Assembly (NCBI RefSeq): GCF_017348835.2
Contig: NZ_CP071375.1
Source: Escherichia coli
GTDB lineage: Bacteria > Pseudomonadota > Gammaproteobacteria > Enterobacterales > Enterobacteriaceae
Reading direction: 5' to 3' (one strand)
DNA length: 64,000 bases
The notes under the pieces were generated by a model. The model did not search any database, had not been told where the DNA came from, and saw nothing but the letters and a program-made list of their open reading frames with translations. Shown in pieces: positions 4,901 through 23,976 of the stretch (position 1 is the first letter of the stretch; every line of letters starts with the position of its first letter). A program made the translations under genes and the position numbers.

Positions 4901-5476
4901 TTAACGCCGCCAGATAATTTTACTGACTTTCCAGTTTTTCAGGGTATCGTCCGAAGGCATTAACCCTTCAGGACCACTCCATTCCCCGCTGAACTGGTAG
5001 CTAATATGTTGACTGCCTTCGGCTTTACATTCGACGGCACGATTATCATCACCATCAGCTTTTTGGCAATTGCCAAATGCTTTGCTGTAAAGGTCGCTAA
5101 ACGGTGTACCGATTTTAACACCGGTGTCAGCAGGAATATCGCTATCCAGCACGTCAATGCGACTGATCGTGCCTTGATCGCCGTTAATCACCATCGCCAC
5201 GTTGTCGCCCTTCATCACTTCAAAAAAGCGCACCACGTTGCCGTTCGCGGTTTTCATTCCGCTGCGCAGGCGATAATCGCCATCAAGCGCATCGGCAATG
5301 GCTTGTTCTTGCAGTGGTGTGGACGCCGTTAATTCACCAACGCCCTGCTCGCTCACTTTGGTGGACGACCCAAACCAGTTCCACGGGTTAGCGGCAGACC
5401 AGTTAACTGACGACATCGTGGAACAGCCGGTCAGCATCAATGGCATAGCGCATAACATTAAACGCAGCGATTTCAT
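4901..5476 (-). CDS. yfeY: Lipoprotein YfeY
   Basis: 191-aa ORF with lipobox LTGC near N-terminus. Confidence 0.85.
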   Translation of the reverse strand: MKSLRLMLCAMPLMLTGCSTMSSVNWSAANPWNWFGSSTKVSEQGVGELTASTPLQEQAIADALDGDYRLRSGMKTANGNVVRFFEVMKGDNVAMVINGDQGTISRIDVLDSDIPADTGVKIGTPFSDLYSKAFGNCQKADGDDNRAVECKAEGSQHISYQFSGEWSGPEGLMPSDDTLKNWKVSKIIWRR

Positions 5477-5536
5477 GTCACTTCCTTTGGTTATTCAATA
5501 ACGTTGCTTGGAGTGCAAATTCACCAAAAAGTGCCG

Positions 5537-5986
5537 TTATTCTTTTACTTCATTAAAACAAGCGCGTAAACGTCGATTGGTCAGCAGCCAGATTAATGCC
5601 ACAATATCCGCCACTACCAGCGCCAGACCGAAACCGCTAACGGATTCACCGTTCAGCCACAGCCACGGTTGCCAGCAAAGTAAAACCACTTGCGCCAACA
5701 GCAACAGAAAATAGAGCACATGCCAGATACGGGGAAACGAAGCCCGCCGACCACTCAGCAAAAACGCCAGCACCGCCGGAATGCCAGGAATCAGCCCCAG
5801 CCAGAAATTATCGTGATCGGGATAAAACAGATTTAGCAGCGCAGTACCCTGCTCGCGCGACGCACCGGCAATAACAAACAGCACCCAGGTTCGCGCCTGA
5901 AGCAATAGCACAAGCCAGAAGAGCAAGGGTAAACGCAGGCGACCGTGCGCATCATAATGGACAGGATGAAACTCAGTACTCTTCAT
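5537..5986 (-). CDS. yfeZ: Inner membrane protein YfeZ
   Basis: Hydrophobic ORF; first ATG at 5984-5986 (the track start is TTG). Confidence 0.8.
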
Positions 5987-11577: not shown

Positions 11578-12939
11578 TCAGAAGAACAGTGACGGATCGC
11601 CCGCCCGTTTGGTCAGGCGACCGTTTGCCATAATGCCCATGCTTTCCAGCCAGCGTTCAAACTCCGGTGACGGGCGCAGGTTGAGTAACTGACGCACAGT
11701 GGCGGTATCGTGGAATGCGGTGGTCTGGTAATTGAGCATGATGTCATCACCCAGCGGCATCCCCATGATGTAGTTGCAGCCTGCGGTGGCGAGCAGGATC
11801 ATCAGGTTTTCGTTGAGGTTCTGGTCAGCGTCAGCGTGGTTGGTGTAACAGCAGTCACAGCCCATAGAGATGCCGCTCAGCTTGCCCATAAAGTGATCTT
11901 CTAAGCCCGCACGAATAATCTGGCGGTCATTGTAGAGATACTCCGGCCCAATAAAGCCGACCACGGTGTTGACGATAAACGGATCGTAATGACGCGCCAG
12001 CCCGTAGTTACGCGCTTCCATGGTCACCTGGTCTGCGCCGTAGTTGGCACCCGCCGACAGCGCCGAACCTTGCCCGGTTTCGAAGTAGAGGCAGTTTTCC
12101 CCGGCGATACGGTTGAACTCTGCACCCACTGCGCGCGCTTCGTCGAGCATCGCCAGTTCCACGCCAAACTCTTTCAGCCCTTTTTCACTGCCACAGATAC
12201 TCTGGAAAATCAGCCCGCCTGGTGCGCCACGACGAATCGCTTCGATCTGGGTGGTGACGTGCGCCAGTACGCAGCCCTGAGTTGGGATGTTGAATTTGTC
12301 GATCACGCCATAGATGGTGTCCAGCACGCGGCTTAAGTTTTCCACGTCGTCAGTTACCGGGTTGACGCCGATCACCGCATCGCCCACCCCGAAGGAAAGC
12401 CCTTCGTAGATTTGCGCGGCGATACTTTGCACGTCGTCACGGGTGTCATTTGGCTGCAAACGGGCGCTAAAGGTGCCCGGAATACCGATGGTGGTATTGG
12501 CCTTTTTGATTACCGGCATTTTCTTCGCGCCGTAGATCAGGTCCGCGTTGGAGCAAATCTTCGCTACCGCCGCGACCACTTCCGAGGTCAGCCCTTTGCG
12601 GGTAAAGGCAATGTCGTCCACGCTGGTTTCATCGCTCAGCACATACTCACGCAGTTCGCTGATGCTCCAGTTTTTAATCTGGTTGTAGGCCGTTTCGTTA
12701 ACATCGTCCTGAATCAGCCGCGTCACGCAGTCATCTTCATAGGCAATCACCGGATTATTGCGGATGTCCGCTACGGTCATTTCCGACAACACCTGCTTTG
12801 CTGCCACGCGCTCCTGTGAGCTTGCCGCTGCAACGCCCGCCAGCACATCCCCCGAACGCAGTTCGTTGGCTTTAGCCAGCACCTCTTTTACATCCTTAAA
12901 CTGATATACATTGCCGAACAATGTGGTCTTTAGTTTCAT
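11578..12939 (-). CDS. eutB: Ethanolamine ammonia-lyase large subunit
   Basis: ORF trimmed to ATG 12937-12939 (MKLKTTLFGNVYQF...); 453 aa. Confidence 0.93.
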   Translation of the reverse strand: MKLKTTLFGNVYQFKDVKEVLAKANELRSGDVLAGVAAASSQERVAAKQVLSEMTVADIRNNPVIAYEDDCVTRLIQDDVNETAYNQIKNWSISELREYVLSDETSVDDIAFTRKGLTSEVVAAVAKICSNADLIYGAKKMPVIKKANTTIGIPGTFSARLQPNDTRDDVQSIAAQIYEGLSFGVGDAVIGVNPVTDDVENLSRVLDTIYGVIDKFNIPTQGCVLAHVTTQIEAIRRGAPGGLIFQSICGSEKGLKEFGVELAMLDEARAVGAEFNRIAGENCLYFETGQGSALSAGANYGADQVTMEARNYGLARHYDPFIVNTVVGFIGPEYLYNDRQIIRAGLEDHFMGKLSGISMGCDCCYTNHADADQNLNENLMILLATAGCNYIMGMPLGDDIMLNYQTTAFHDTATVRQLLNLRPSPEFERWLESMGIMANGRLTKRAGDPSLFF

Positions 12940-13050: not shown

Positions 13051-13087
13051 TTCATCCTGCCGAACGCAACCGAACGCGCCGGATACA
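13051..13087. repeat. Left att-like imperfect direct repeat (ttcatcctgcc..N17..ccggataca)
   Basis: Shares the 11-bp and 9-bp arms at the same spacing with 22476-22511. Confidence 0.5.
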
Positions 13088-13127: not shown

Positions 13128-14333
13128 TTGAGCAAGACACCACTGACAGCAAAGGCCATAGAGGCCGCACAACCGCAGGACAAGCCCTATAAACTCACCG
13201 ATTCACAGACACCTGGCCTGTTTTTGCTGGTCCATCCCAACGGCAGCAAATACTGGCGATTCCGGTATTGGATAGACAAGAAGGAGCGGTTACAGGCTAT
13301 TGGGGTGTATCCGCTGATTAGCCTCAAGGAAGCCCGCAAACGCGCCACAGAGAGCCGTTTACTGATAGCCCAGGGAATTGACCCAATGGATTTGGCACGC
13401 AAGGAGAAAGCCATTGATGCTCTTAATGCTATCGCCAGTTTTAAAGCTGTAGCAGAAGACTGGATGGCTACCAAGGTGAGCGGATGGAGTGAGAGCTATA
13501 CAAAGCAGGTCAGATCGGCACTAGAGAAAGATGTTTACCCCGTGCTAGGTAAGCGGTCGATAGTGGATATAACGGCCCGTGACGTGCTGGCGTTACTACA
13601 GAAAAAGGAGCGCACCGCACCGGAACAAGCCAGGAAATTACGCCAGCGTATCGGGGAGATCTTCAAATTTGCCGTTATCACTGAACTGGTTAACCGGAAT
13701 CCGGTTGCAGATCTGGATACGGCACTGAAAGCCAGACGCCCAGGCCATAACGCGTGGATACCGATTAATGAAATTCCGGCCTTCTACAAAGCCCTTGAGA
13801 GAGCTGGGAGCGTTCAGATTCAGACGGCAATACTTTTGCTCATCCTCACAGCTTTGAGGACGGCAGAATTGCGCCTGATGCGCTGGGAATGGGTAGATCT
13901 GCAATCGGCAACAATCACATTGCCCGCTGAAGTCATGAAGGCCCGCCGACCGCATGTTGTCCCGCTATCCCGGCAGGCGGTCGAGCTATTACAGGACCAG
14001 TTTACCCGCAGCGGATACAGTGCTTTCGTCTTTCCTGGCCGATTCATGGACAAGCCACTTTCAGCCAGTGCCATCCTTAAAGCCCTGGAGCGTATCGGAT
14101 ACAAGTCGATAGCCACAGGCCACGGCTGGCGGACCACCTTTTCAACGGCGCTTAATGAGTCCGGCAGGTACTCACCAGACTGGATCGAAATCCAACTGGC
14201 CCACGTTCCGAAAGGCGTGCGCGGTGTTTATAACCAGGCGGCCTACCTGAAGCAACGACGGGCCATGATGCAGGATTATAGCGACTGTATTGATTCAATA
14301 CTGGCTGGTGACGGTAATCCACTTGAACCGTGA
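13128..14333 (+). CDS. intZ: P4-family tyrosine site-specific integrase
   Basis: 401-aa ORF; AP2-like N-terminal domain; C-terminal catalytic region with R..HGWR..Y signature (HGWRTTFSTAL, RGVYNQAAY); first island gene beside the left repeat. Confidence 0.88.
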   Translation: MSKTPLTAKAIEAAQPQDKPYKLTDSQTPGLFLLVHPNGSKYWRFRYWIDKKERLQAIGVYPLISLKEARKRATESRLLIAQGIDPMDLARKEKAIDALNAIASFKAVAEDWMATKVSGWSESYTKQVRSALEKDVYPVLGKRSIVDITARDVLALLQKKERTAPEQARKLRQRIGEIFKFAVITELVNRNPVADLDTALKARRPGHNAWIPINEIPAFYKALERAGSVQIQTAILLLILTALRTAELRLMRWEWVDLQSATITLPAEVMKARRPHVVPLSRQAVELLQDQFTRSGYSAFVFPGRFMDKPLSASAILKALERIGYKSIATGHGWRTTFSTALNESGRYSPDWIEIQLAHVPKGVRGVYNQAAYLKQRRAMMQDYSDCIDSILAGDGNPLEP

Positions 14334-14884: not shown

Positions 14885-15400
14885 TCAGGCTGGTTTTTTA
14901 ACTATATACCCCGTATGCCAAGGATTCTGATCGCGCGGCATCGGGTCCGCCTTGATAGACTCATAAAACTTATCAGCCATCTCAGCCACAAACTGTACAG
15001 AGGATTCGAACTCAGCGTTTTTGTGTGCGGGAGGAAACCAGAAGTCTAACACGCCAGCATTTCTATTTTTACATACAGCGTATATAAGATAAGCATCAGA
15101 TGTAGGGGTAACTTTTTCGAAACCACCGGGACCATAACGACCAGTAGACCAGTCATCCCAGCATTGTTCTGTCCCGCTATAGCCGTACTGATTGGTATAA
15201 AGACCAATATTTACATGGACTTTACGTAAGTGGATAGGATATACACACGGGGGTTTATGGAAAAGAGTATCCTTTCCAAAATCAGGATGATGTCCATATC
15301 TCCAATGATAAATAAACGAATCCTTAAAGCTCTTTAATTCATCGTTTGTTTTAAACTTATTATCACTGTAGACCTTACCAATAAATTCATTCTGGACCAT
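14885..15400 (-). CDS. Hypothetical protein (171 aa), distal gene of two-gene island cassette
   Basis: ORF 14885-15403; ATG at 15398-15400; overlaps upstream gene by 14 nt; Trp/Tyr/His-rich, no family recognised. Confidence 0.6.
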   Translation of the reverse strand: MVQNEFIGKVYSDNKFKTNDELKSFKDSFIYHWRYGHHPDFGKDTLFHKPPCVYPIHLRKVHVNIGLYTNQYGYSGTEQCWDDWSTGRYGPGGFEKVTPTSDAYLIYAVCKNRNAGVLDFWFPPAHKNAEFESSVQFVAEMADKFYESIKADPMPRDQNPWHTGYIVKKPA

Positions 15401-15734
15401 CAAAGCTTACACTCTTTAAGCGTTCTTCTCGTGAATCGAATAAATCTTTTGATAAATCACACGCTTGTGTGAACGTCATTTTTTTTACTCGTGGTACAGC
15501 CATAGGCGAGGCCGCATTCATCACTTTGTTTTCTTCGTGATCGAGAGTAGCAGTGTAGCGAAACATGACACTTTTACCGCGCACCAACTGGTATCCTAGT
15601 CGATACGCTAACGCGTCAAGATGCGTCAGACGATTTGTTTTACGCAAGCCAGTCATAGCTTTTGGCTTACGAGTGCGCACAGAAAGGGATTTCCCTTCTC
15701 GCTTAGTCGCAAACAAAGTAACTATTTTTGACAT
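15387..15734 (-). CDS. Hypothetical basic protein (115 aa), proximal gene of two-gene island cassette
   Basis: ATG 15732-15734 preceded by GGAGA RBS; Lys/Arg-rich; stop overlaps start of downstream gene. Confidence 0.55.
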   Translation of the reverse strand: MSKIVTLFATKREGKSLSVRTRKPKAMTGLRKTNRLTHLDALAYRLGYQLVRGKSVMFRYTATLDHEENKVMNAASPMAVPRVKKMTFTQACDLSKDLFDSREERLKSVSFDGPE

Positions 15735-16290
15735 GGTATCTCCTGACATCAATCTGCTAAGGCCATTGTGCCTTGTTTGAATAGTAAACTATTCGCCCAA
15801 TCTACACCAGTGATTTTCTTGACGCCAATAGTAAAGGCAGCATTGCCCACCACAGGCAGACAATGAGACTTCAGATAGCGCACCTTCTATCGCGCACGCG
15901 CTCAATAAAACCAACGACACCGCCATCCTGCCTGACCGATGTTTTTAACCAGCGTATACAGAGAAACAGACAACAGCATGAAATCAGCGTATATCCAGGT
16001 GCAGACGGCACTATCACACAACGCACAGCAGGCTGAGGTGAACACTCAAGCAACTTTATCCCCGCCACCGACCACCGCAAACTATCATGACCGTGCCAAA
16101 TTCAAAAGGAATGGCCCATATAACGCGATGAACACACATAAGCGCTACACTTGCTTACCTGAAAACTTCACAGCGTCACAGCGCGTTTTAGACACGTTAA
16201 AATTAATGAGATTTCATTAAATTTTCACCAGACACCGGAACAAGCCTATAAATCAAAAATGAATTACCGACATGCGCCGCTGGCGTTCAC

Positions 16291-16310
16291 AGGAAGAATC
16301 AATAACTTAG
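16291..16310. repeat. Imperfect direct repeat aggaagaatcaataacttag, copy 1
   Basis: 17/20 identical to 16391-16410, exactly 100 bp downstream. Confidence 0.55.
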
Positions 16311-16390
16311 GCCAATGGCGAAAGTTAAACAAAATCAAGAACTTGCAGAAATGCAGGATGAAGCAGCCGATGTGCCCCGTTGGATTTTAC

Positions 16391-16410
16391 CAGAAGAATC
16401 AACAAGTTAG
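16391..16410. repeat. Imperfect direct repeat cagaagaatcaacaagttag, copy 2
   Basis: See 16291-16310. Confidence 0.55.
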
Positions 16411-16662
16411 ACTCGGTGATTTCACCGACTCCTGCCGGACTACTGACCAGATCGAACCATTCCCCAAATTTGGGGAGAGCAAACCACACGCAGATCCTGC
16501 CAGGCTATTTCATCCCACCGCATCACGTATTTGCACACTTCCCCGCTGACGTGCTCATTTTGATAACGAGTTACCCGCTAGCCCTTGCCACATCACCATT
16601 TGTCGCGCTTTGACTAAATTAGCGACGTGCCTGTTATAGCGATACGCTAGTTATGCAGAAAG

Positions 16663-16682
16663 CGCGACATATCCAGCAACCA
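16663..16682. repeat. Exact 20-bp direct repeat cgcgacatatccagcaacca, copy 1
   Basis: Identical to 16790-16809; lies just upstream of the 16707 ORF start. Confidence 0.7.
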
Positions 16683-16706
16683 TGCACCCTACAGAGGAAT
16701 TGAATC

Positions 16707-17159
16707 ATGCGAGACATAGACTGGTCAGCTATCCCTTTCGATGATTTACCGCCCTGGCATCTGGACTGGGACGTAGACCAACGCGAAAACGCGACATATC
16801 CAGCAACCACCAGCATTACAGCGATGCGCCCCGTAAAGCCTAAGAAATACCAGGCAACCGACCTGATAGCTCACCTCAAAGCTATTGGCGGCGTATTTAC
16901 CGGAAGCAAAGACACGCTTGCACATGAAGTATGGCCCCGGAAGACGCCAGCGGGTCGAACCGTTTTACGCTTACTGACCGAACTGTCAGACAACGGCGAC
17001 GCTGTAGTGATTAACCGTGGTCGTTGTGGCGTGGAAGTTATTCTGACGCCGAAGAACAGGGCACAGACGCCTGAATTAAGCGCACCCAAGCAAATGCATA
17101 GCCAAAAATTAAGTCCAGCAGAACGCGTTATATCGCTTTTAAATGGCATCGGATTTTAA
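16707..17159 (+). CDS. Hypothetical protein (150 aa)
   Basis: ORF with GAGG RBS about 10 nt upstream of the ATG; non-repetitive composition; no family recognised. Confidence 0.5.
   Translation: MRDIDWSAIPFDDLPPWHLDWDVDQRENATYPATTSITAMRPVKPKKYQATDLIAHLKAIGGVFTGSKDTLAHEVWPRKTPAGRTVLRLLTELSDNGDAVVINRGRCGVEVILTPKNRAQTPELSAPKQMHSQKLSPAERVISLLNGIGF
16790..16809. repeat. Exact 20-bp direct repeat cgcgacatatccagcaacca, copy 2
   Basis: Inside the 5' end of the 16707 ORF; 127 bp from copy 1. Confidence 0.7.
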
Positions 17160-17185: not shown

Positions 17186-17213
17186 AAAAAAATCCCGCCG
17201 GAGAAAGCGGGGA
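17186..17213 (-). terminator. Intrinsic terminator-like hairpin oriented for the minus strand
   Basis: Minus-strand reading ccccgctttctccggcggg followed by U7 (plus strand aaaaaaa-tcccgccggagaaagcgggga). Confidence 0.5.
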
Positions 17214-17446
17214 AGTGAAATCAATCGTTGTAGTTATAGATCACATTTTGGAGTTGAGGATGGCTAATCCTCGCTAATATTATCGCGCCGTTATGTGATG
17301 GGCGCAATTATTTCTTACTAATTAAAAGTTTTGTAAATATTACAGAATATCCCTTTTCACTATATGGTAAAAGATGTGAAACAGGGACATGAGGAATATA
17401 ATATTAAGTATCAACAGTAATGTTGGTCTTTAATTTCATTCAGGGC

Positions 17447-17490
17447 GCGGTGAGGGTTTTCTCCATATTTTTCCTCACCGCTACTTTTTC
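17447..17490 (+). terminator. Terminator/attenuator-like hairpin immediately upstream of the AlpA-like gene
   Basis: gcggtgagg..N17..cctcaccgc stem then tactttttc; a third complementary segment gaggtgag overlaps the RBS of the next gene. Confidence 0.45.
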
Positions 17491-17501
17491 GAGGTGAGAA
17501 C

Positions 17502-17693
17502 ATGAATGATAGCGAATTAATGACGGTGAACGAGGTAGCCGCTTTATTCGGCGTTACCCGTCGGACAATATTCCGGTGGATGAACAAGATTAAAGGCTGG
17601 CCCGTCCCGGTCAGTCCGATTGGCTCAAGAATTAAGTTTATCCGATCTGAGATTTTGGAATTCTATAAAAACAAAGGCGCTCGCCACCAATGA
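17502..17693 (+). CDS. AlpA/Xis-like small DNA-binding regulator (phage transcriptional regulator family)
   Basis: 63-aa ORF with HTH-like segment VNEVAALFGVTRRTIFRWM; GAGGTGA RBS. Confidence 0.65.
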   Translation: MNDSELMTVNEVAALFGVTRRTIFRWMNKIKGWPVPVSPIGSRIKFIRSEILEFYKNKGARHQ

Positions 17694-19638: not shown

Positions 19639-21819
19639 ATGAGTGGAAATCTCGGGACCATATACTACGAGGTCGATGCCCGCACTGGGAAACTTCTTAT
19701 CGCGCAACAGCAGGCGGAAGAGGCGTTCGATCGCATTGAACGAGGAGCGCGGAAGGCTGATAGCGGCGTCAAAAAGTTAAATACGCAGATGACTAAAACA
19801 TCAGCCGCAGTCAAAACCAACCTTTCCCCGGCAATCCGTAACGCATCATACCAGATCGCAGACCTTGCCACTCAATTGCAGATGGGCGGTAATGCGCTTC
19901 AGGCGTTCGCTGTGCAGGGTGCGCAGTTATTAGCTGGCTTTGGCACGATGGGCGCGGTAGCTGGCGCGGTGCTGGCTATCGCTGGCGCTATGGGTGGAAG
20001 CCTGGCACAAGGCGCTGATAGTGCAGCCGGATCGGTTGAGTATCTGGACAAGGCGATCACCAAACTGAACGAGGTCATAGCTGTAAATGAACAGGGCGTG
20101 ACGGTGATGAGTGATAGTTACGCCAGACTTTCTAAGGTTAACGCTGAAGTAGCGAAACAGATGCGGAACATGGCTGAAATTCAGGCAATTGCAGCACTGC
20201 GTGACCTGAAAGAACAGGCAAGCCAGGCACAGGGGGAAATGTCGTCATTCTGGCGCAGCTTGCAGGGTGGTAAAGCTGACGCAGCAGCAGCAGCACAGGC
20301 ACTTGATGATCTTGGAATCACAACCAACGACTACAAAGAGGCGATAGCCATACTGAACGCCAATCAGCCGGATACACAGGCGCAAATGGCAACGCTAGCT
20401 AAGTCCGTGATGTACATAGGCGAGGAATACAACCTGACAAACCAGCAAGCCTACGAGTTCATCCGAGCACTAAATAGGGCCGCGACAACGAGAACGCCGG
20501 AAGCCATGCAGGAACTATCGGGCTTCATGCAGGTATTGCTACAGGACACCGAAAACGGTAACGAGGCATTCCGTGAACTGGCTATCAAATTCGTTGATGC
20601 ACAAACCAAAGGCGCAATGCTGGAAGACCAACTAAACCGACTGAAAGGCGCTATCAGTGACGCAGCCACAGAAGCCAGAAACGCCAATTTTACCACTATG
20701 CTCAACACCGTCGCCGCACGCCTGGCAGCCATTGAGCAAGGTTGGGAGGCAGGCGTTAGGATGCAGATGAAAGCCCAGGGCTACACTGAAGAGCAGATCG
20801 ATGAATATGTGAACATGGAAACGGCGTACCGTGATGCAAAAGCCGCTTTGGACGAGAAGAATAAGGCCGACCGTGAAGCTATTGCGCTATCCAAACGCCA
20901 GGCCGCAGAAGCAGCCCGCAAGGCAAAACAGGAAGAAGCTGAAGCACAACGCAAGGCCAAACAGTTAGCCGCGCAGAAGGAGCAGGCAGGACGCTTTACG
21001 CAGCAAGTAATGACGGAATACCTGACGACCGTAGATCCGGCAACAGGCAAGGCGTTTAACCCTGCCGCACAAGTAGAAATGCAGGAGCAGCAGAAGAAAG
21101 CGGCGCTGGATAAATACAGACAGTTGGGCGTCCTGGATGAACAGCAGTACCAGAACACGCTAACCGCCATCCAGAAAACCGCGTCAATGCGCCGCCAGCA
21201 AATCATCAAAGACGAGGCCGACACGTTATTCAACAATCAGCAACAGTTGATCGGCACATTTGGCGATTTCTTCGGTGAACTGTCTGGAGTCATAGCAGAC
21301 GGTGCAGGTGAGCAAAACGCGGCATATCAAGCGCTATTTGCTGTGCAGAAGGGTTTTGTATTGGCATCAGCAGCTTTAAGCCTTCAGAAAGCGCTTGCTG
21401 AGGCAAACGCCTTGCCTTTCCCGGCTAATCTTCCGGCCTATGCGCAAGCTATGTCAGCAGGCACGCAGATCATTTCAGCTATTCGTGGAATAGCTTTCGG
21501 TGGCGGACGCTACAACGGCGGCGCGGTTGGTGCTGGCAACCTGTACCGCGTGGGTGAACACGGTAAGCCTGAGATATTCAAGGCGAACAATGGCAGCCAG
21601 TACATGATCCCAGGTGATAACGGTCGCGTGATAAGTAATCGTGACATTGGCGGCGGTGGCGGCGTAACAATCAACAGCCCGATCACCATTAACACTACGA
21701 ATGGCTTCAGTGATGAAGACTCAAGGCGTCTTGAGGAAGCGATGAAGCGCGTAGCTATGGGCGTTTGCAGGCAGGAGTCAACCAGACCGGGAGGAATGTT
21801 AGCCCCGCGCCGTCGTTAA
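19639..21819 (+). CDS. Phage tail tape-measure-like protein (lambdoid H-like), orphan
   Basis: 726-aa Ala/Gln-rich coiled-coil ORF; C-terminal GNLYR motif and Gly-rich tail as in lambda H; no neighbouring tail genes. Confidence 0.6.
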   Translation: MSGNLGTIYYEVDARTGKLLIAQQQAEEAFDRIERGARKADSGVKKLNTQMTKTSAAVKTNLSPAIRNASYQIADLATQLQMGGNALQAFAVQGAQLLAGFGTMGAVAGAVLAIAGAMGGSLAQGADSAAGSVEYLDKAITKLNEVIAVNEQGVTVMSDSYARLSKVNAEVAKQMRNMAEIQAIAALRDLKEQASQAQGEMSSFWRSLQGGKADAAAAAQALDDLGITTNDYKEAIAILNANQPDTQAQMATLAKSVMYIGEEYNLTNQQAYEFIRALNRAATTRTPEAMQELSGFMQVLLQDTENGNEAFRELAIKFVDAQTKGAMLEDQLNRLKGAISDAATEARNANFTTMLNTVAARLAAIEQGWEAGVRMQMKAQGYTEEQIDEYVNMETAYRDAKAALDEKNKADREAIALSKRQAAEAARKAKQEEAEAQRKAKQLAAQKEQAGRFTQQVMTEYLTTVDPATGKAFNPAAQVEMQEQQKKAALDKYRQLGVLDEQQYQNTLTAIQKTASMRRQQIIKDEADTLFNNQQQLIGTFGDFFGELSGVIADGAGEQNAAYQALFAVQKGFVLASAALSLQKALAEANALPFPANLPAYAQAMSAGTQIISAIRGIAFGGGRYNGGAVGAGNLYRVGEHGKPEIFKANNGSQYMIPGDNGRVISNRDIGGGGGVTINSPITINTTNGFSDEDSRRLEEAMKRVAMGVCRQESTRPGGMLAPRRR

Positions 21820-22475: not shown

Positions 22476-22511
22476 TTCATCCTGCCAGACCATTCACTTT
22501 CACCGGATACA
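22476..22511. repeat. Right att-like imperfect direct repeat (ttcatcctgcc..N16..ccggataca)
   Basis: Partner of 13051-13087; a further partial copy (caccggatacac) at 22065-22076. Confidence 0.5.
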
Positions 22512-22572: not shown

Positions 22573-23976
22573 TCAGGAAGGAAATGCGAGTGATTTCACC
22601 GTCACCGGCACAACCGATCCGCCAAAAAGAGGCGTACCAATGTCGATATAGTCCCCCGCGCGGACAATCACTTCGTCAATGACTGCCAACGGGAGTTGTT
22701 GTAGCTGTGGGCGCAACAACATGCCCAGAGCTTTACCAAAGTCCTGCCCGGCCACCACCAGCAGGGGATGCGGATTCGGAAAACGCGCGACGAAATCGAC
22801 CAACGCGTTGATGACCGTCAGTACCGCGGCGTAACGCACAGGCAGCGAGGCGGGAAGCGCCAGCACGTACGCGTCAGTTTTGGGATCAAGATCCAGCTGA
22901 ATCAGCGCCTGTTGCCAGGCACTCACCAGATCCGTTTCATCAATCGGGATCGCCACCGGCAAATTGCGCAGCGGCAGTTGTACGCCCTCCAGCCAGATTG
23001 TGCTGCCAGAGAGCGAAAGGGTATGTGCACCCGCGCCAATCACCGTGGCGCGTACGGTTTGCGCCGGAAACTGCACGTTCATCTCACGCAGGCGCGGATG
23101 GTCATGCAGCGCCGTTGCCAGAAGCGGGCCAATATCGGCAAAACAGAACGGGTCGGCGGGCTGGTGGCGATAACATTCGCCCACGCCGCCAGAAAGCGTA
23201 ATGATTTCGGGCGTAACACCTGCGGGCAGCAAACCGGTTTGCATTAATGCCTGCGCGAGCGGCGAAAGCGTTCCGTCAATCACTTCGACAATCAGCTCTG
23301 CCATCCGCCAGGTAACCTGCACCAGCTGCGCGCCGGTCAGCGAACGGGCGTCGGTGCCTGCGCCGAAGCACTCATCCACAATCATCTGCCCCGGTTTATG
23401 AGCGTAAACCACGCGCCCCTGGCTGTCGGTTTCCAGCAGGCGACCACCGACGTTGAGGCAGGCAGTGCCGCTGATTTTTCCGGCATCGAACAGGGCGTAG
23501 TTCGCGGTGCCACCGCCGATGTCGATATTCAGTACCCGACACAGCCGTTGTTCAGAAAGGGTTTGCGCCCCGGCACCGTGACCGGCGATCACGGATTCGA
23601 GGTGCGGCCCGGCGCTGGCGACGACAAAATCGCCCAGCGACTGAGAGAGCGCCATCACCGCCGGGCGAGCATTGCGGGTTTTCGCGCTTTCACCGGTGAT
23701 GATGATGGCACCAGAATCAACGCTTTCCGGCGCAATGCCCGCAGCCTGATATTGCTCTAAAATCAGCGATTTCAGTTCCGCTTCTTTTAAACCACCCTGT
23801 TTATCGACAGGGGTAAAGAACACCGGGCTTTGCCAGCTAATTTCGCGTTTGATGAATTCGTAGCGCGGCACCTGCGACACCGCCGCACGGTTAACCAGTT
23901 CCAGGTGGGAGAAAATCACCTGGGTGGTGGTGGTGCCGATATCGATACCGACGCTCAGTAGCTGGCGAGTGTTCAC
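22573..23976 (-). CDS. eutA: Ethanolamine ammonia-lyase reactivating factor
   Basis: 467-aa ORF; conserved eut order. Confidence 0.92.
   Translation of the reverse strand: MNTRQLLSVGIDIGTTTTQVIFSHLELVNRAAVSQVPRYEFIKREISWQSPVFFTPVDKQGGLKEAELKSLILEQYQAAGIAPESVDSGAIIITGESAKTRNARPAVMALSQSLGDFVVASAGPHLESVIAGHGAGAQTLSEQRLCRVLNIDIGGGTANYALFDAGKISGTACLNVGGRLLETDSQGRVVYAHKPGQMIVDECFGAGTDARSLTGAQLVQVTWRMAELIVEVIDGTLSPLAQALMQTGLLPAGVTPEIITLSGGVGECYRHQPADPFCFADIGPLLATALHDHPRLREMNVQFPAQTVRATVIGAGAHTLSLSGSTIWLEGVQLPLRNLPVAIPIDETDLVSAWQQALIQLDLDPKTDAYVLALPASLPVRYAAVLTVINALVDFVARFPNPHPLLVVAGQDFGKALGMLLRPQLQQLPLAVIDEVIVRAGDYIDIGTPLFGGSVVPVTVKSLAFPS

Follow-up and report, generated by a model that had tools for sequence, protein, structure and literature searches.

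The question raised by this locus is which role is played by a 150-aa protein (hereafter ORF150, like its gene) that is encoded in a ~9.5-kb chromosomal island of Escherichia coli, and which the first-pass annotation of the window, i.e., the whole stretch of 64,000 nt that was analysed, had left as an island protein of unknown function without a recognised motif. The island is of the CPZ-55 type and lies between eutB and eutA, the same insertion site as that of the K-12 cryptic prophage CPZ-55. In identical islands, the RefSeq annotation of ORF150 is hypothetical protein WP_001204667.1. The positions of the features discussed below are collected in Table 1.

Table 1. Features of the island and of the ORF150 locus; positions refer to the window
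Feature	Position	Strand	Remarks
eutB	11578-12939	-	flanking gene
Candidate att core	13051-13061, 22476-22486		TTCATCCTGCC, 11-nt direct repeat near both island ends
intZ-type integrase gene	13128-14333
YafO-like toxin gene and overlapping 121-aa partner	14885-15403 and 15387-15752	-
Second repeat class	16287-16310, 16386-16410		TTCAC(A/C)GGAAGAATCAA(T/C)AA(C/G)TTAG; 100 nt apart, 5' of ORF150
Palindrome	16461-16476		TCCCCAAATTTGGGGA, perfect, 16 nt
Site S0	16526-16541	-	GAAGTGTGCAAATACG; type B specificity, conserved ~-186 position
Site S1	16598-16611	-	AAAGCGCGACAAAT; inverted partial copy, directly 5' of the putative -35
Putative sigma-70 promoter	16619-16648	+	-35 TTAGCG (16619-16624), 18-nt spacer, -10 TACGCT (16643-16648)
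25-nt direct repeat	16658-16682, 16785-16809		GAAAGCGCGACATATCCAGCAACCA; second copy 24/25 identical, inside ORF150
Site S2	16659-16672	+	AAAGCGCGACATAT; between putative -10 and RBS
Shine-Dalgarno GAGGAA	16694-16699	+	7 nt 5' of ATG; AGGA core kept in all diverged relatives
ORF150	16707-17159	+	150 aa + stop, ATG start; predicted winged-helix protein
N-terminal peptide, codons 1-26	16707-16784	+	MR(D/N)(I/V/T)DWS(A/S)IPFDDLPPWHLDWDVDQR
Site S3	16786-16799	+	AAAACGCGACATAT; mainly codons 27-31, linker before the winged helix; within the 25-nt duplicate of the S2 region
Winged-helix domain, codons 50-113	16854-17045	+	order H-S-H-H-S-S; recognition helix (residues 83-96) varies between specificity types
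C-terminal tail, codons 126-148	17082-17150	+	APKQMHSQKLSPAERVISLLNGI; conserved, helix 137-145
Terminator-like hairpin and T-run	17194-17211	-	between ORF150 and HTH_17 gene
HTH_17/excisionase-type gene	17502-17693	+	next gene after ORF150
Four small genes			function unknown; listed between HTH_17 gene and tape-measure-like gene
Tape-measure-like gene	19639-21819	+	726 aa; phrog_1538, E 3e-103
eutA	22573-23976	-	flanking gene

The position of ORF150 in these islands is constant: it follows the integrase gene, with or without cargo in between, and precedes either the HTH_17 gene or, in some sister islands, an HNH endonuclease gene standing in its place. Its description as the first gene of a rightward block fits the window island, where nothing but a decayed ORF remnant is left in the 950 nt upstream, but not about half of the sister islands, in which a 75-aa HTH_36 gene (phrog_270, E 2e-8) is situated just 5' of ORF150. 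The remnant, a 93-aa reading frame at 15939-16220 (+), was rejected as a possible overlooked first gene, its counterparts in loci L016, L019 and L024 being interrupted by in-frame stops. The label "AlpA-like" given to the next gene holds loosely, in the sense of an HTH_17/excisionase-type product; its Phage_AlpA score of 14.7 bits is below the Pfam cut-off of 21.

The other island genes were also inspected. The YafO-like toxin matched Pfam YafO_toxin below the cut-off (E 2.6e-4) and phrog_1651 (E 9e-43), its 121-aa partner had no family match, and the pair, which roughly half of the sister islands carry, behaves as a variable cargo cassette. The tape-measure-like protein is the only phage-structural gene product of the island; among the matches listed, its identity to known tape-measure proteins of phages does not exceed ~40%. 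Fuller sister islands additionally carry a TerS-like gene (phrog_1482) and an HNH endonuclease gene (L005 11829-12254 and L005 9342-9737), as well as a YffS-like regulator, and no capsid, portal or replication genes were found in them. Overall, the gene content of the CPZ-55-type islands is satellite-like; the literature on CPZ-55, yffS and satellites with tape-measure genes held nothing functional on ORF150 or on the island family, nor was such a satellite-like gene set found described there. One member of the family (L007, NZ_CM143725.1), whose intZ-type integrase is 96% identical, is inserted in yghO rather than between eutB and eutA, so the family has at least two chromosomal sites. The candidate att core is short and could be due to chance, and no Rfam RNA family was detected in the island.

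The reading frame and its RBS were present as first annotated. Across the gene, dN/dS is ~0.2 against relatives with 55-72% protein identity, with strongly different regional contributions: in codons 1-26, dN is 0.02-0.03 against a saturated dS above 1.6 (dN/dS ~0.02), while codons 27-116, which include the domain, have a dN/dS of ~0.25. The last 32 codons are identical at the DNA level to the O157:H7 copy, which indicates a recent recombination. Judged by these comparisons, ORF150 is a real gene under purifying selection with a mosaic history, since both the RBS and the protein sequence are conserved, and a spurious ORF was rejected on dN/dS.

At the level of sequence, the absence of a motif in the first-pass annotation was borne out. 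ORF150 matched no family in Pfam (E≤1), NCBIfam or PADLOC, including the known anti-phage defence proteins of the latter; the best PHROGs match (E 0.02) was not significant, nor was any match to PDB sequences, where even the domain profile gave only E≥0.87, and no MarR, BlaI-MecI (Penicillinase_R), PadR or ArsR profile scored above its curated threshold. At the level of structure, it was not: AlphaFold2 predicted a confident winged helix for residues 50-113, with the topology H1-S1-H2-H3-S2-wing-S3 and H3 as the recognition helix. Thus, ORF150 is predicted to possess a winged-helix DNA-binding core and, to judge from profiles and model together, is a member of a winged-helix family for which Pfam, PHROGs and NCBIfam have no model. 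The core is connected by a variable linker to the N-terminal peptide, which is poorly modelled (pLDDT ~50) and yet, outside positions 3-4, invariant in seven aligned sequences, with further variants deviating at position 8 as well; this peptide may serve to dock a partner. The C-terminal helix may be dispensable, because a common 125-aa variant is without the tail, the same tail that is the sole remaining part of the gene in many decayed islands. A model of a glycine-serine-linked tandem dimer, made in search of a dimer interface, was of too low quality to be informative (pTM 0.26, mean pLDDT 48).

Repeated DNA sites are found at the start of the ORF150 gene. A 14-nt motif, AAAGCGCGACA(T/A)AT, occurs in three copies which flank the putative ORF150 promoter (S1 and S2) and lie within the gene (S3, 127 nt 3' of S2). 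With ≤2 mismatches allowed, the 14-mer of S2 is matched five times in the 64-kb window, where 0.62 matches would be expected; the best three are clustered within 200 bp at the ORF150 start. No cognate sites were seen in the island outside 16526-16799, either at the island ends with the candidate att core, at the int gene, 5' of the HTH_17 or tape-measure-like genes, or at other island promoters. In four island variants, the positions relative to the ATG are kept: S0 at ~-186 (-), S1 at ~-116 (-), S2 at ~-48 (+) and S3 in the ORF. Inside the gene, types A and A' have their site at +79 (+ strand), types B and B' at +114 (- strand), which means that the downstream site was gained or kept independently. 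The linker peptide follows the DNA site, with TAT to AAT changing Tyr to Asn.

Alignment of the diverged islands demonstrated that the core sequence of the sites differs between the variants, in every copy, in step with the recognition helix. In the window (type A), the core AAAGCGCGACA(T/A)AT, e.g., AAAGCGCGACATAT, is accompanied by a recognition helix starting with GRTVLRLL; in type A' (L003, L004 and L008), both plus-strand copies have AAAGCGCGACAAAT and the helix starts with GRTILRLL. Type B (L002, L005, L009, L016, L017 and L025) combines AAAGTGTGCAA(A/T)(A/T)AC, also given as AAAGTGTGCAAATACG, with GRRTLAAML, and type B' (L019) has AAAGTGTGTGAATACG in three copies, together with GRWTVAMLL. 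The helix therefore partitions exactly like the site cores, into GRT(V/I)LRLL in A and A' and GR(R/W)T(L/V)A(A/M)(M/L)L in B and B'. Linkage alone would co-transmit sites and protein variants; the parallel change of three to four separate copies argues against pure hitch-hiking and indicates that the sites are read by ORF150 or by a factor that co-evolves with it. S0 still has the type B sequence in types A and A', where it delimits on the left a swapped module that consists of S1-S3 and the specificity part of the gene. Such position-conserved and covarying sites are the signature of a cognate protein/operator module. With its winged-helix core and with cognate sites that covary with the protein variant, the protein of "unknown function" can be narrowed to a regulator-type DNA-binding protein, even though it still belongs to no known sequence family.

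The sign of this regulation has to be read from the arrangement of the sites. A putative sigma-70 promoter lies between S1 and S2, and its elements (TTAGCG, an 18-nt spacer and TAC(G/A)(C/A)T) are kept in the four variants, the -10 being TACAAT in L003 and TACGAT in L019. With a transcription start near 16655, S2 would cover ~+5 to +18, S1 ~-57 to -44, and S3 would be at ~+130. S2 and S3 are thus at positions where a bound protein would block initiation or elongation, and negative autoregulation is the best reading because S2 is directly 3' of the putative start and S3 is inside the gene. Between ORF150 and the HTH_17 gene, no terminator was detected on the plus strand, so repression of the ORF150 promoter could also gate the rightward genes.

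Our preferred interpretation, which we hold to be slightly more probable than not, is that ORF150 is the autoregulated immunity-type repressor of the island, a sequence-specific winged-helix protein acting on sites at its own promoter. It would recognise asymmetric sites of ~14-16 bp around this promoter and in the 5' part of the coding sequence; bound at S2, and probably forming bridges to S1 and S3, it would switch off its own promoter along with any read-through into the genes to the right, with S1 possibly helping by looping. The recognition helix and the sites would have diversified together into at least four specificities, while the N-terminal peptide and the C-terminal helix would serve as constant interfaces at which the protein either oligomerises or meets a factor of the host or helper phage that lifts the repression. 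Several sites overlapping the putative promoter of the gene, and a specificity region that covaries with them in all four types (A, A', B, B'), are in line with this. Some features are less so: asymmetric sites spaced 60-130 bp apart in mixed orientation are not what is usually seen with a simple dimeric repressor, a divergently transcribed partner gene as in the CI/Cro or Stl modules is missing, and the promoter was recognised from conservation, whereas a consensus promoter scan did not list TTAGCG/TACGCT.

The main and serious rival, to which we nevertheless give a low probability, is an origin-binding replication initiator, for which S0-S3 would be the iterons of the island origin, partly inside the initiator gene, and which, once the island is excised, would use its N-terminal peptide to recruit replication proteins of the host or of a helper phage. 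In phage lambda, the iterons of ori are located within the linker-coding sequence of the initiator gene O, and one site in ORF150 is likewise in linker-coding DNA, as are the repeats of its YffS-like paralogues; covariation of a protein with its sites is typical of initiator/iteron pairs, too. Among the island gene products, no replication protein such as a primase or helicase was recognised. An HTH_36 domain is encoded by the 75-aa gene preceding ORF150 in sister islands, and another is fused to the winged helix in the distant relative P0015, where it matches phage replication initiators in their N-terminal, DNA-binding part (phrog_270, E 1e-7). Both HTH_36 matches, however, attest a generic winged helix only, and Pfam, PHROGs and the fold model gave neither a Rep_3, Phage_rep_O or HTH_36 match nor a second winged helix in ORF150 itself, a protein of 150 aa with a single winged helix where iteron initiators have two. 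Moreover, there are just three to four sites, spaced by 60-130 bp in mixed orientation and not in tandem; no A+T-rich unwinding region is adjacent (GC ~0.5 over 16400-16900), no DnaA box was seen on reading the sequence, and two of the sites bracket the promoter, which is the arrangement of operators.

An equally low probability is assigned to ORF150 being a positive regulator, activating its own promoter and the rightward operon from S1, or an architectural protein building a nucleoprotein complex of the Cox/Apl type. S1 is where class I/II activators bind, beside a weak -35 (TTAGCG), and the scattered asymmetric sites resemble the arrays bound in mixed orientation by small winged-helix switch proteins, of which P2 Cox is an example. 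Against both stand the positions of S2 and S3, which hinder transcription; furthermore, no sites were seen 5' of the HTH_17 and tape-measure-like genes, nor near the att ends or the int gene, where a directionality factor would have to bind. On the same grounds, and for want of an HTH_17/AlpA match, which belongs to the next gene, a function of ORF150 as excisionase or recombination directionality factor (Xis, Cox, TorI, AlpA) was rejected. Decay of a cryptic element is also suggested by the fact that most CPZ-55-type islands have lost ORF150 and several copies are cut to 125 aa, but a non-functional ORF is very improbable: the intact copies are under strong purifying selection, their RBS and promoter elements are conserved, and their operator sets are maintained and co-evolving. 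Least credible of all is a role as third component or regulator of the YafO-like cassette, with which the first-pass annotation had proposed a co-occurrence analysis. ORF150 is close to the cassette in the window and O157:H7 islands, but it occurs with and without it (L003, L004, L005, L008, L016, L018 and L021 have ORF150 and no cassette), is ~950 nt away on the opposite strand, and has no cognate sites near the cassette promoter; a type II antitoxin or other toxin-antitoxin component was rejected on its occurrence without the cassette in at least seven loci. In a more speculative and unlikely reading, the CPZ-55-type islands would be a family of E. coli phage satellites that has gone unrecognised, ORF150 the origin or switch protein that determines their specificity, its N-terminal peptide a docking motif capturing a replication or induction factor of the helper phage or host, and the four specificity types incompatibility or immunity groups.

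As a repressor, ORF150 would be most comparable with lambdoid CI/Cro acting on OR/OL and with Stl of the SaPIs. Common to them are several cognate sites overlapping the promoter of the regulator (here a putative one), the joint diversification of protein and site specificity between otherwise similar elements, and constant protein parts available for oligomerisation or an inducing partner. ORF150 differs by its winged helix in place of the CI/Cro-type HTH, without any sequence similarity, by its orientation in the same direction as the putatively controlled genes with no divergent partner, and by asymmetric, widely spaced sites, one of them intragenic; repression would be its presumed mode of action. 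The best structural matches to the core were BlaI/MecI and MarR/PadR-type repressors, small autoregulated proteins whose operators also overlap their own promoters. These dimerise through defined domains, none of which was detected in ORF150, and bind palindromic operators; they have no counterpart of its 49 N-terminal residues. The resemblance to known phage regulators thus comes close, in fold and architecture but not in sequence, to the clear homology that the first-pass annotation had named as speaking against its assignment. Most likely, ORF150 is a mobile-element winged-helix autoregulator that falls by sequence into none of the named winged-helix families.

The closest proteins were found within the same island family. 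YffS of K-12 CPZ-55 and the YffS-like "XRE family" proteins encoded at the right end of such islands share a distantly homologous winged helix in their C-terminal ~75 residues; they are larger (230-270 aa), start with an XRE-type HTH followed by a coiled coil, lack the N-terminal peptide and the C-terminal tail of ORF150, and are uncharacterised as well. BLASTP gave E 5e-4 for ORF150 against the YffS-like protein of L003, and P0018, the product of the last gene of a related eut island, linked the latter (E 7e-8) with K-12 YffS (E 2e-5), as did profile matches. The distant relatives recovered by profile search have only the winged helix in common; in P0017, P0018 and P0021 it is C-terminal, preceded by an N-terminal domain and a coiled coil. 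The sole relatives of ORF150 are uncharacterised proteins of the same island family that carry the YffS C-terminal domain.

Intact ORF150 is rare, being present in ~0.4% of complete E. coli genomes: ~20 of the 5426 hold most of the gene, and ~50 further ones just its last ~100 nt, next to intZ. The ORF150 region is 100% identical in 7 complete genomes and missing from the CPZ-55 of K-12. A search of 5.8 billion proteins returned only ten clusters, all named ones from E. coli, and an exhaustive profile search of 1.84 billion representatives returned 14 proteins. No match was obtained by tblastn in 50,697 phage records and 72,556 plasmids, and no relative by a peptide-pattern scan of IMG/VR. A DNA pattern for the N-terminal motif, applied to one genome per species (100,044 species), had a single chance match in an unrelated MAG and no match in any other species; in metagenomes, it found 10 stretches, nine of which were E. 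coli-type copies of known variants and one unrelated.

In the CPZ-55 family of E. coli islands, every gene is annotated as hypothetical; these results provide a first functional entry point. The distinctive feature of the locus is a small regulator with a readable and co-evolving putative operator code, for which four natural protein/site pairs are at hand; its winged-helix family, which the public family collections lack, is connected with the C-terminal domain of K-12 YffS. Should the CPZ-55-type islands prove to be phage satellites, ORF150 would be the first choice for their immunity or induction switch; if not, it would be an ordinary autoregulator of a mobile element.

Apart from the sites discussed above, several minor features were noticed. 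The second repeat class upstream of ORF150 also occurs twice 5' of the YffS-like gene P0018 in the related eut island (L011 7759-7782 and 7824-7847) and may represent operators of another island regulator. The palindrome is in conserved non-coding DNA 5' of S0; at its position, L007 and L009 have CTCAAATTTGAG, in which both arms are changed and the symmetry is kept. The hairpin and T-run downstream of ORF150, which resemble an intrinsic terminator, suggest a short leftward transcript from the A+T-rich region 17212-17500, where neither an Rfam family nor a convincing small ORF was found. In ATCC 8739 (L026 3900-5680) and ~50 other genomes, the last ~100 nt of ORF150 lie inside a 1.8-kb unannotated stretch after intZ, and in L026 an unannotated 58-aa HTH_17-like ORF is located at 5471-5647. 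The YffS-like genes contain direct repeats in the linker-coding DNA just 5' of the winged helix and inverted copies near the gene ends (L003 16699-16780 and 17016-17038; L011 8322-8455), a layout that echoes that of ORF150.
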